From a virus (Duplodnaviria; Heunggongvirae; Uroviricota; Caudoviricetes), in IMG/VR virus record IMGVR_UViG_2537561618_000007: a stretch of DNA of 16,450 nucleotides; one strand, written 5' to 3'. Shown in pieces: positions 12,270 through 15,690 of the stretch (positions are counted from its first letter, which is position 1; each line of letters starts with the position of its first letter). The translations under genes and the position numbers were made by a program. The notes under the pieces are model-generated. The model was not told where the DNA came from. It saw nothing but the letters and a program-made list of their open reading frames with translations, and did not search any database.

Positions 12270-12312
12270 TGAGGTGTACTGGCAATAGCGGACACTACCA
12301 TTTGTTCTTTTT

Positions 12313-13104
12313 TTAAGCAGCCATCTGATGATATTTTTCCCTGAAGGCTGCCGGGGAGATATTCCCCAGACGAGAGTGACGACGCTGACGATTGTAGAAA
12401 ATCTCAATGTATTCCCGTATTACTGAGATGGCTTCATCCCGGTTATTAAAACGATAGTGGCTCAGGCTCTCATTTTTCAGCGTTCCCCAGAAGCTTTCCA
12501 TCGGAGCGTTGTCGTAACAGTTACCTTTACGCGACATTGATGTTTTCAGACCAGACTGCTCCTGTATGACCCGGTAATCGTATGCGCAGTACTGTGAACC
12601 TCGATCAGAGTGGTGGATTAGCCCGGCAGGTGGGCGCTGGCTCCTGAGCGCCATAAACAGGGCTTTACCTGTCAGCTCTTTTGTCATGCGCTCTCCCATG
12701 GCGTAGCCGACAATTTCGCACGTATAAACATCTTTGATGCCAGCAACATACGTCAGGTCCGCCACCCAGACCTGATTTGGTGCTGTAGGAGCGAACGTCT
12801 GGTTCAGCAGATTTGGCGCAACTGGCAGATTGTGGTTCGGGTTCGTAGTCGCTCTGAACTTGCGTTTCTGCTTACAGCGTAGCCTCAGCTCCTTACGAAG
12901 ACGTGCCAGTCGGTCACGACCAACGATGATGCCATTCTCTGCCAGCTCCGTCTGGAGCCGCCGGGTTCCATATGTTTCGCGAGTGCGGATATGTGCCACC
13001 TTAATCTCCAGTTTTAGCCGCTCATCACTTTGTTTTCTGTCTGAGGGTTCATGCTGTACCCAGTTGTAATAACCGCTCCTGGATACACCAAATACCTGAC
13101 ACAT
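12313..13104 (-). CDS. IS600 OrfB (DDE transposase domain)
   Basis: 263-aa ORF-track product, identical to the product of 14856..15647 on the opposite strand. Carries the typical HSD...YDN...E pattern. Confidence 0.85.
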   Translation of the reverse strand: MCQVFGVSRSGYYNWVQHEPSDRKQSDERLKLEIKVAHIRTRETYGTRRLQTELAENGIIVGRDRLARLRKELRLRCKQKRKFRATTNPNHNLPVAPNLLNQTFAPTAPNQVWVADLTYVAGIKDVYTCEIVGYAMGERMTKELTGKALFMALRSQRPPAGLIHHSDRGSQYCAYDYRVIQEQSGLKTSMSRKGNCYDNAPMESFWGTLKNESLSHYRFNNRDEAISVIREYIEIFYNRQRRHSRLGNISPAAFREKYHQMAA

Positions 13105-13139
13105 CGCTTCAATGGGAAATTGTTGTCGCCATTGTTCGA

Positions 13140-13319
13140 TTAACGCGTATTTTTCAGCGACTCCTGTGCAAAATACGCTGTTGATTTTTTTAATATATCG
13201 CGCTCAAGGCGAGCTTCATTTAACGCCTTACGCAGTTGCAGAATTTCAGATTCCAGTTCAGCCACCGTGCGGGAACCAGGAGTACCGAGCCCTTTTCTGG
13301 CGGCGGTAACCCATTGTCC
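13140..13319 (-). pseudogene. IS600 OrfA, 5'-truncated
   Basis: Encodes ...GQWVTAARKGLGTPGSRTVAELESEILQLRKALNEARLERDILKKSTAYFAQESLKNTR and lacks the N-terminal ~40 codons present in the copy at 1..226. Confidence 0.75.
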
Positions 13320-13370
13320 TGAAGGCACTGAACCGCCCCGGGTTTCCTGGAGAGTGTTTTATCTGTGAAC

Positions 13371-14261
13371 TCAGGCTGCCAGATCATCGTTTCCGACGGA
13401 AGCATAATAAGCTTTTTCTGCTTCTGCCGGAGGGATGTGGCCCAGCCTTTCCAGCAATCGTCGATTGTTATACCAGTCCACCCACGTGAGTGTGGCCAGT
13501 TCCACTTCTGCACGGTTTTTCCAGCTCTTACGGTGTATTACCTCCGCTTTGTAAAGACCATTGATGCTCTCCGCCATCGCGTTGTCATACGAGTCGCCTG
13601 TACTTCCTGTTGATGCCAGTAATCCGGCTTCCTTAAGCCGCTGTGTGTAGGCCAGCGATACATACTGAGAACCTTTATCACTGTGATGGACCGTGCCGGA
13701 CGGTCGACGGGCCCATAACGCCTGCTCCAGTGCATCCAGCACGAATGTCGTTTCCATGGACGATGAGACCCGCCACCCCACGATGTATCCGGCAAACACA
13801 TCAATGATGAACGCCACATAGACGAAGCCCCGCCATGTGCTGACGTAAGTAAAATCAGCCACCCACAGCTGGTCAGGTCGTTCTGCCACGAACTGACGGT
13901 TTACGCGGTCGCCTGCGGCAACGGCTTTCCGGCTGATGGTCGTACGGACCTTTTTACCCCGGAGAACACCGGCAAGTCCCATAACCGCCATGAGACGTGC
14001 CACAGTGCATCTGGCCACTCTGATACCTTCCCGTAACAACTGACGCCAGACTTTACACCGTATACCTTGTGATTTTCATCGTATACGCGCTGTATCTCTT
14101 TCTTCAGCCAGTCATCGCGCTGCGCACGGGCACTGCGTTTATCCGGATGATGTCGCTGTTGCTGACAGTGGTAATACGTTGACGGGGCAATATGCAGTTC
14201 GCTGCATAGCGGTCCGCCCCGTACTGCTCACGCAGCTTATCCAGCAGTGGCATCATTTTTT
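13371..14261 (-). pseudogene. IS629 OrfB, disrupted by two frameshifts
   Basis: Three segments matching the recalled OrfB sequence sit in three different frames: [13 protein letters not shown], then [54 protein letters not shown], then from 14039 [13 protein letters not shown]... to the C-terminus. Consistent with 1-nt and 4-nt deletions. Confidence 0.65.
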
Positions 14262-14579
14262 CCAGAGGCGGTCGAACTCCGCCTTCGCAAAATAAGCGGA
14301 AGCCTGGCGAAGGATATCGTTACTGCGGCGCAGTTCACGATTTTCACGCTCCGGCTCTTTCAGACGCTGACGTTCAGCGGTGGTGAGCCCTCCATCACCG
14401 CCCCCGGTATCCCGCTCATGCTGGCGACCCCAGACACGCAGAGTCTCCGGCGTACAGCCAATCTTTGGAGCAATGGAACAAATTGTCGCCCATTGTGAGT
14501 CATATTCGCCCTGACTTTCCAGAACCATACGGACTGCCCGTTGACGGACTTCGGGGGAAAAACGAGTATTTTTAGTCAT
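14253..14579 (-). CDS. IS629 OrfA
   Basis: 108 aa [50 protein letters not shown]...[20 protein letters not shown] matches recalled IS629/IS1203 OrfA. Confidence 0.85.
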
Positions 14580-14634
14580 CCTGTTTACCTCTTTCTCAGG
14601 AAGTTTAGTCTCCAGGATTCCCGGGGCGGTTCAC

Positions 14635-14820
14635 ACTTTAGGACAATGGGTTACCGCCGCCAGAAAAGGGCTCGGTACTCCTGGTTCCCGCACGGTGGCT
14701 GAACTGGAATCTGAAATTCTGCAACTGCGTAAGGCGTTAAATGAAGCTCGCCTTGAGCGAGATATATTAAAAAAAGCAACAGCGTATTTTGCACAGGAGT
14801 CGCTGAAAAATACGCGTTAA
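14635..14820 (+). pseudogene. IS600 OrfA, 5'-truncated
   Basis: Encodes TLGQWVTAARKGLGTPGSRTVAELESEILQLRKALNEARLERDILKKATAYFAQESLKNTR, stop at 14818..14820. Contains the A7 slippery run at 14769..14775. Confidence 0.75.
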
Positions 14821-14855
14821 TCGAACAATGGCGACAACAATTTCCCATTGAAGCG

Positions 14856-15647
14856 ATGTGTCAGGTATTTGGTGTATCCAGGAGCGGTTATTACAACTGG
14901 GTACAGCATGAACCCTCAGACAGAAAACAAAGTGATGAGCGGCTAAAACTGGAGATTAAGGTGGCACATATCCGCACTCGCGAAACATATGGAACCCGGC
15001 GGCTCCAGACGGAGCTGGCAGAGAATGGCATCATCGTTGGTCGTGACCGACTGGCACGTCTTCGTAAGGAGCTGAGGCTACGCTGTAAGCAGAAACGCAA
15101 GTTCAGAGCGACTACGAACCCGAACCACAATCTGCCAGTTGCGCCAAATCTGCTGAACCAGACGTTCGCTCCTACAGCACCAAATCAGGTCTGGGTGGCG
15201 GACCTGACGTATGTTGCTGGCATCAAAGATGTTTATACGTGCGAAATTGTCGGCTACGCCATGGGAGAGCGCATGACAAAAGAGCTGACAGGTAAAGCCC
15301 TGTTTATGGCGCTCAGGAGCCAGCGCCCACCTGCCGGGCTAATCCACCACTCTGATCGAGGTTCACAGTACTGCGCATACGATTACCGGGTCATACAGGA
15401 GCAGTCTGGTCTGAAAACATCAATGTCGCGTAAAGGTAACTGTTACGACAACGCTCCGATGGAAAGCTTCTGGGGAACGCTGAAAAATGAGAGCCTGAGC
15501 CACTATCGTTTTAATAACCGGGATGAAGCCATCTCAGTAATACGGGAATACATTGAGATTTTCTACAATCGTCAGCGTCGTCACTCTCGTCTGGGGAATA
15601 TCTCCCCGGCAGCCTTCAGGGAAAAATATCATCAGATGGCTGCTTAA
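14856..15647 (+). CDS. IS600 OrfB (DDE transposase domain)
   Basis: 263-aa product identical to that of 12313..13104. Confidence 0.85.
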   Translation: MCQVFGVSRSGYYNWVQHEPSDRKQSDERLKLEIKVAHIRTRETYGTRRLQTELAENGIIVGRDRLARLRKELRLRCKQKRKFRATTNPNHNLPVAPNLLNQTFAPTAPNQVWVADLTYVAGIKDVYTCEIVGYAMGERMTKELTGKALFMALRSQRPPAGLIHHSDRGSQYCAYDYRVIQEQSGLKTSMSRKGNCYDNAPMESFWGTLKNESLSHYRFNNRDEAISVIREYIEIFYNRQRRHSRLGNISPAAFREKYHQMAA

Positions 15648-15690
15648 AAAAAGAACAAATGGTAGTGTCCGCTATTGCCAGTACACCTCA

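Follow-up and report, generated by a model that had tools for sequence, protein, structure and literature searches.

A probable deletion scar between two inverted IS600 copies flanking IS629 in a Shigella flexneri prophage

The window analysed here is a 16,450-nucleotide stretch of viral DNA (IMG/VR record IMGVR_UViG_2537561618_000007; Caudoviricetes), and its positions 12270-15690 hold two truncated copies of the insertion sequence (IS) IS600, which lie in inverted orientation on either side of a defective IS629. A repeat search of the window finds the inverted arms at 12269-13324 and 14636-15691, each 1056 nt long, ~100% complementary and separated by 1311 nt; a near-perfect inverted repeat of 1 kb cannot have arisen by chance. 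We describe the arms in the coordinates of a complete 1264-bp IS600 on an E. coli plasmid, annotated in RefSeq as IS3-like element IS600 family transposase. The left arm (12270..13320, minus strand), which we call copy B, runs from IS600 position 1264 to 187 and carries its right inverted repeat (IRR) at 12270-12299. It is followed by an 8-bp stub of copy A, now on the plus strand (13321..13328, IS600 176-183), by IS629 (13329..14633, minus strand), inserted in copy A after position 183, and by the rest of copy A (14634..15690, plus strand), from position 181 to its IRR at 1264. The orientation flips at 13317-13320, where TCCT fits both readings, IS600 172-175 in forward orientation and 187-190 in reverse complement. 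In IS600 coordinates the breakpoints are at 175/176 and 190/191, an offset of 15 bp, and a third IS600 at the start of the window (1-290) provides the uninterrupted sequence over this region. A preliminary description of this DNA had proposed just such an arrangement, with two 5'-truncated inverted copies, a 4-bp microhomology at the flip shared by both orientations, a short piece of forward IS600 up to IS629 and breakpoints 15 bp apart, and alignment to the 1264-bp element bears it out.

Each arm shares at least 99% identity with the complete RefSeq-annotated IS600 and has the IRR, at 12270 and at 15690, of the terminal inverted repeats TGAGGT...ACCTCA. The left inverted repeat (IRL) is missing from both, so they are truncated copies. 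Their OrfB products are identical (263/263 amino acids), and comparison of the arms base by base leaves exactly two internal differences, 13200 versus 14760 and 13184 versus 14776 (307C and 323T of copy B, respectively), both points agreeing with the preliminary description. OrfB has 263 instead of 272 residues because the same 27-bp in-frame deletion (IS600 763-789) is present in both arms, at 12743/12744 and 15216/15217, taking out nine residues (ATQEGWLYL) just after the first catalytic aspartate. The first 39-41 codons of OrfA are missing from either arm, and in the left arm the programmed-frameshift motif A AAA AAG reads A AAA AAT (window 13184, IS600 323), the 323T destroying the motif. 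Neither arm combines intact OrfA and OrfB with a frameshift site and a DDE (rve) transposase, although Pfam rve domains are still detected; judged by these reading frames, the arms are genuine but dead IS600 copies. The IS600 variant with the 27-bp deletion is also found at several unrelated chromosomal loci of S. flexneri-type genomes (in our labels for the compared loci, L016-L020 and L022-L024, at ~10361 and equivalent positions). As the variant is probably inactive, its presence at several loci suggests that it has spread, either mobilised in trans or copied by gene conversion. The shared deletion might be taken to prove that one arm is a sister copy of the other, a reading that we rejected, since the variant occurs at unrelated loci and the right arm of sister genomes retains the 27 bp.

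IS629 is bounded by terminal inverted repeats of 25 nt (13329-13353 and 14609-14633, 92% complementary) and by CAC on both sides, the last three bases of the copy A stub on the left and 14634-14636 on the right, as a 3-bp target duplication. It is 98.5-99.8% (~99%) identical to copies annotated as IS629 or IS1203, and with 1305 bp it is close to the family length of ~1310 bp. OrfA is intact (108 amino acids, 14253-14579) and orfB is split over three frames, in line with the defective IS629 within a forward IS600 that had been described initially. One of the orfB lesions, a 4-bp deletion near position 579, is common to relatives, while the other, a 1-bp deletion near 413-417, is private to the window. 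Compared to all sister copies at the locus, the private changes of the window IS629 are this 1-bp deletion, which lies in a G run, and a G at 1237 (valine for isoleucine, near the OrfB C-terminus); they could be real mutations or sequencing errors. A protein look-up with the two window-specific OrfB fragments (206 and 222 amino acids) returned no match.

The flip itself is not confined to the window. An exact-product look-up with the 62-residue open reading frame (ORF) that runs across it (13140-13328, minus strand) gives five contigs. In LR213452.1 (S. flexneri AUSMDU00008355; PMC9376355) and CP026776.1 a contiguous match to the window runs from ~2.3-2.7 kb to 15217 at 99.97% identity and takes in the flip and IS629, and the flip is present as well in the draft AFGV01000031.1 and in contig JBQXYK010000048.1. 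The junction strings of LR213452.1, CP026776.1 and AFGV01000031.1 were printed and compared and are identical. Beyond these, the 22-nt flip junction had no exact match in a collection of species-representative genomes, and BLAST against complete E. coli genomes and plasmids, where IS600 and IS629 are ubiquitous, did not return the junction as one contiguous piece. Among the BLAST candidates set aside, H34 and H39 have IS629 adjoining a complete IS600 and not within it, and H51 and H55 are related prophages without these insertions. A protein look-up with the 97-residue ORF across IS629 and the junction had no match. A chimeric read or a mis-join in this IS-rich region, which the preliminary description treated as a live option, could be favoured on the grounds that the region is dense in repeats and that the right flank of the window and its two private IS629 differences are seen nowhere else. 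However, the flip together with IS629 occurs in at least four other assemblies, from different groups, which makes misassembly of the junction very unlikely, and it can be derived base for base from an ancestral allele, as described below. The probability of an artefact is in our opinion close to negligible.

The ancestral allele is recognised from the left end of the block. Copy B cuts a Rha-family gene, leaving a remnant of 60 codons out of a 198-residue protein (12090..12272, plus strand, in the ORF list), the stop codon of which, TGA, is formed by the first three bases of IS600; this 60-residue ORF is therefore a marker of the left insertion. Its look-up reveals six genomes in which nothing has been deleted (L029, L031, L032, L035, L036 and L037), of which L031 is S. 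flexneri 61-4982 and L035 is NCTC 9728 (PMC9455713). The comparison with related genomes proposed in the preliminary description thus yields six that carry both an IS600 interrupted by IS629 and a second, complete IS600. The order in these genomes is lysis genes, the 60-residue ORF, complete IS600 on the minus strand (copy B), ~1.5 kb of phage DNA, the 5' end of an IS600 on the plus strand (copy A), IS629 on the minus strand, the rest of that IS600 on the plus strand, a fragment of the terminase small-subunit gene (Nu1) and terminase. The undeleted copy B encodes a fused transposase of 385 residues (383 in L031), and IS629 sits in copy A already, at the identical site. Each IS600 has its own 3-bp target duplication, GTC/GTC around copy B and AAC/AAC around copy A (the IRL sides are deleted in the window), which tells us that both are ordinary independent insertions, placed head-to-head by happenstance. 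The spacer between them is 1505 bp, consisting of 1499 bp of phage DNA and two target-duplication copies. The same two sites are found in an intact prophage of E. coli FDAARGOS_943 (L028), where the left flank ends at 1855, within the 198-residue Rha-family gene (intact also in E. coli CFSAN029787), and the right flank begins at 3355, within the terminase small-subunit gene, 1499 bp away. Insertion of one IS600 into another, transposition of the entire block as a composite and a duplicative inversion were all considered and rejected, in view of the 1499-bp distance between the flanks and the separate target duplications. Two of the undeleted genomes have additional insertions at the locus: L029 (11300-12550) has a further IS3-family element within IS629, and in L032 (11117-12380) another complete IS600 interrupts the 5' end of copy A, at position 167.

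When 1866 bp are removed in silico from L037 between the two TCCT copies (copy B 1-186, the spacer and copy A 1-175), the 120 nt around the resulting junction are exactly those of window 13261-13380. Because the undeleted allele keeps the phage DNA collinear with the intact prophage, the polarity from undeleted to deleted is unambiguous. From this match between alleles we consider it highly likely that the flip junction was left by one deletion of 1866 bp, between two inverted IS600 copies that were both already present in an S. flexneri prophage, with hairpin slippage as the mechanism that we infer. The TCCT at 13317..13320, which in copy B is the reverse complement of 190-187 and in copy A is 172-175, is the kept copy of the 4-bp direct repeat that closed the deletion. 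The comparison of genomes traces three steps. Copy B inserted on the minus strand in the Rha-family gene of a lambdoid prophage, duplicating GTC, and copy A on the plus strand in the terminase small-subunit gene, duplicating AAC, with their left ends facing each other over 1505 bp. IS629 next entered copy A after position 183, duplicating CAC. Finally, the deletion took positions 1-186 of copy B, the spacer, which contains cos and the 5' end of Nu1, and positions 1-175 of copy A, closing at TCCT.

The preliminary description had read the offset breakpoints differently, as the mark of a fold-back or template switch of a single IS600::IS629 at TCCT/AGGA, which would have produced the inverted arm as a duplicate. 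TCCT (172-175) and AGGA (187-190) do form a 4-bp inverted repeat within one IS600, and the arms of the window differ at two bases only and have the 27-bp deletion in common, as such an event would leave them. A strand switch guided by inverted symmetry was a reasonable idea, but no IS600 was duplicated: the undeleted relatives hold both copies complete with their own target duplications, and the 1866-bp deletion reproduces the junction. With nothing duplicated or inverted, the fold-back model is rejected. Furthermore, the left arm ends exactly at its IRR beside a phage site 1499 bp upstream of the original flank of the right arm, with no mirror-image flank, the arms of sister genomes differ by a 27-bp indel, and 307C and 323T are older than the junction, being present in the undeleted copy B of L029, L031, L032 and L037. 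These two bases, which had been taken as an argument against a mirrored read, are old markers of the left copy. A fold-back origin accordingly retains only a very slight probability. The A AAA AAT in the complete copy B of the same four genomes means that this copy was probably unable to make OrfAB already before the deletion.

The flanks of the arms, called unrelated in the preliminary description, turn out to be so only secondarily in the window genome. In the sister genomes with the junction, the IRR of the right arm abuts a truncated Nu1, the terminase small-subunit gene; the terminase A, W and portal genes come next, and this series is collinear with the lysis genes that precede the left arm. 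The right arm of these genomes keeps the 27 bp, and the arms there differ by the 27-bp indel mentioned above. Copy A is marked by 497C and 816T in L015, L021 and L037, while the right arm of the window lacks both markers, has the 27-bp deletion and is joined to a molR-like gene fragment from the metG-yehI region (15691..16249, plus strand), which is foreign to the prophage; it is therefore a hybrid. The ORF at 15659-16276 begins within the IS600 end. In ten S. flexneri-type chromosomes the fragment stands behind a complete IS600, with metG and a WGR-domain fragment upstream; we presume it to be molR-like from its Pfam context (WGR, DUF4132, AAA_5) and the E. coli K-12 gene order, as it is named in no annotation. 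In a change later than the deletion, the distal right arm and its flank would have been swapped with another IS600 beside the molR-like fragment. We infer that this exchange was probably an IS600-IS600 recombination, with inversion favoured over translocation, which linked the prophage to the metG/yeh region. In AFGV01000031.1 (L026, 11087-11490) the left arm retains the 27 bp and its IRR abuts IS66-family sequence instead of a phage gene; either IS600 has mediated a further rearrangement here, or repeats have caused a mis-join in this short-read draft.

How could the deletion have come about? In L037 positions 1-183 of copy B and 1-183 of copy A make up an inverted repeat of 183 bp, in which a single position is mismatched, around a loop of 1505 bp; the homology stops at 183, where IS629 interrupts copy A. 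With a shortened loop the predicted hairpin is very stable, at -256 kcal/mol (z = -45). Of the direct repeats of 4 nt or more around the stem base, the TCCT pair is nearest to it, lying 3 nt outside it on the copy B side and 8 nt inside it on the copy A side, and a random junction would show 4 bp or more of microhomology with a probability of ~0.016. On single-stranded DNA during replication the facing 5' ends of the two copies would fold into a hairpin, the base of which is set by IS629. The polymerase would stall at the stem base, and the nascent end would slip between the TCCT copies that straddle it, skipping the hairpin. This slippage model explains both the near symmetry of the breakpoints in IS600 coordinates and their distance of 8-12 bp from IS629. 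The arrangement has the features expected from such an event: the lost segment was flanked by inverted repeats, a direct repeat lay at each endpoint and one of the two was kept, and the endpoints are at the stem base. Slippage is the accepted explanation for the RecA-independent excision, precise or nearly precise, of Tn10 and Tn5. Hairpin slippage was shown both in vitro and in vivo with 300-bp inverted repeats, an insert of 1.3-1.37 kb and direct repeats at the base (PMC4134008).

Several points weigh against this reconstruction. The case for hairpin slippage is geometrical throughout. The TCCT of copy A is 8 nt inside the stem, so that breathing or partial copying of the stem end must come first, and a direct repeat of 4 bp is short. 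The left arm of the deleted lineage has 621G, and also the 27-bp deletion in all cases except the draft AFGV01000031.1, while the undeleted copy B of the closest relatives (L029, L031, L032, L037) has neither, and an extra step of gene conversion is required to account for this. Since the 27-bp-deleted variant exists at several unrelated loci, conversion from another copy is the simplest source for the left arm. Lastly, the arrangement of the window, in which a 27-bp-deleted IS600 is followed by the molR-like fragment, is found in the window and in no other assembly examined.

The same ancestor, geometry and product can be reached by another route, in which the hairpin or cruciform is cut by SbcCD or another nuclease and the ends are resected and rejoined at TCCT. 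It starts from the same ancestral alleles and differs only in its enzymology, and large inverted repeats in E. coli are reported to show SbcCD-dependent instability beside slipped misalignment (PMC11754738). The position of both endpoints within ~10 nt of the stem base, however, suits polymerase stalling better than resection from a cut in the loop. In addition, breaks made by SbcCD are normally mended from the sister chromosome without a scar, and E. coli and Shigella are not known to have canonical non-homologous end joining. Cleavage followed by end joining appears quite improbable to us on balance, although it deserves more credit than the other alternatives to slippage.

Transposase activity also has to be weighed, since a second deletion allele exists at the same prophage site in L033 (8160-8380) and L038 (8160-8380). 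Here the 60-residue ORF is followed by GTC and TGAGG, and then directly by TGAGGTAGCC. This deletion extends from 5-7 nt inside the IRR of copy B to the exact IRL terminus of copy A, with a 2-bp TG overlap, and it has removed nearly all of copy B as well as the spacer. An endpoint at an IS terminus suggests an event of the transposase or IS-excision enhancer (IEE) type over hairpin slippage for this allele. It could be imagined, by analogy, that the IS600 or IS629 transposase, perhaps with IEE, cut at IS ends to produce the flanking deletion in the window as well. However, neither of the window's endpoints coincides with an IS terminus: one is 186-190 bp and the other 171-175 bp deep in its IS600 copy, and the end of IS629, which has an intact target duplication and a broken orfB, is 8-12 bp away. 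For the window junction such an origin is highly unlikely, and we prefer slippage where the hairpin has its base.

More broadly, one may ask if the 1-kb inverted IS600 arms around IS629 are a hotspot where rearrangements recur within a single S. flexneri lineage. The idea comes from the move of the right arm to the metG/molR locus, the different left flank of AFGV01000031.1 and the second independent deletion allele at the site; we regard it as a tentative and rather unlikely proposition. If it were true, nested IS insertions would set hairpin boundaries and so program where illegitimate deletions fall in IS-rich genomes.

The remainder of the window is likewise rich in mobile elements. The molR-like fragment is truncated by the start of an IS1 (16250..16450, plus strand), which matches the IS1 region in L001 at 100% and has IS1 Pfam domains in the same place in relatives. 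At the opposite end, the third IS600 (1..290, minus strand) is represented by its 5' end with the IRL at 290, is cut by the window edge and corresponds to the complete IS600 at 1186-2449 of L037. Together with the 27-bp deletion in the arms, the IS1 and this third IS600 are absent from the preliminary description. In the prophage early region an IS911-like element of ~1250 bp (926-2174) is 99% identical to annotated IS911 copies, and beside it LR213452.1 lacks 524 bp (window 2174-2697). A cluster of prophage tRNA genes (9373-9683), Met-CAT (Ile in the annotation of relatives), Arg-TCT, Thr-TGT and Gly-TCC, is situated between the antiterminator Q and holin genes.

For the prophage, the loss of cos and of the 5' end of the terminase small-subunit gene (Nu1) is expected to disable packaging and represents one step in lambdoid prophage decay. 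The scar structure has no function of its own, and the 1-kb inverted repeats that remain can support further rearrangement. A lone inverted-repeat junction with microhomology mimics a fold-back or a misassembly, and it takes sister genomes to reveal a simple deletion; at this locus assemblies differ for genuine biological reasons. With both alleles present in public S. flexneri genomes, the locus offers a natural before-and-after pair for hairpin-promoted slippage, in which a third IS sets the stem base.

The deletion scar belongs to an ordinary and well-understood class of illegitimate recombination, seen here in a decaying S. flexneri prophage. Its closest counterpart is the slipped-strand deletion between inverted repeats, as in the hairpin-slippage model of Canceill, Viguera and Ehrlich and in Tn10/Tn5 excision. 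In common are the long inverted repeats around an insert of 1.3-1.5 kb, the short direct repeats at the stem base and the outcome, with one repeat copy kept and the hairpin lost together with the other copy. The in vitro substrate had repeats of 300 bp and an insert of 1.37 kb (PMC4134008), compared to 183 bp and 1505 bp here. In contrast to these models, the repeats here are two independently inserted IS600 and not the arms of a composite transposon, and a third element, IS629, limits their homology. The direct repeat measures 4 bp, whereas those of the models are 9-27 bp, and one of its copies lies within the stem, 8 nt from the base. Each IS also survives for the most part, which creates a new 1-kb inverted repeat. 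Fold-back inverted duplications give a similar product, with inverted arms meeting at a short microhomology with an offset of ~15 bp, but in our case both arms pre-existed, DNA was lost, and the arms end exactly at their IRRs, with flanks that were originally collinear phage sites. The IEE-mediated excision of IS3-family elements in pathogenic E. coli, with its flanking deletions, concerns the same IS600 and IS629 families and likewise yields small structural polymorphisms in IS-rich genomes (PMC9397093), and differs in that no endpoint in the window coincides with an IS terminus. Finally, a prophage rich in IS600, IS629, IS911 and IS1 fits well with the IS-mediated inversions and prophage decay of Shigella, and the exchange in the right arm resembles IS600 recombination, while the flip junction, unlike the products of homologous recombination between IS copies, comes from an illegitimate event at a microhomology.

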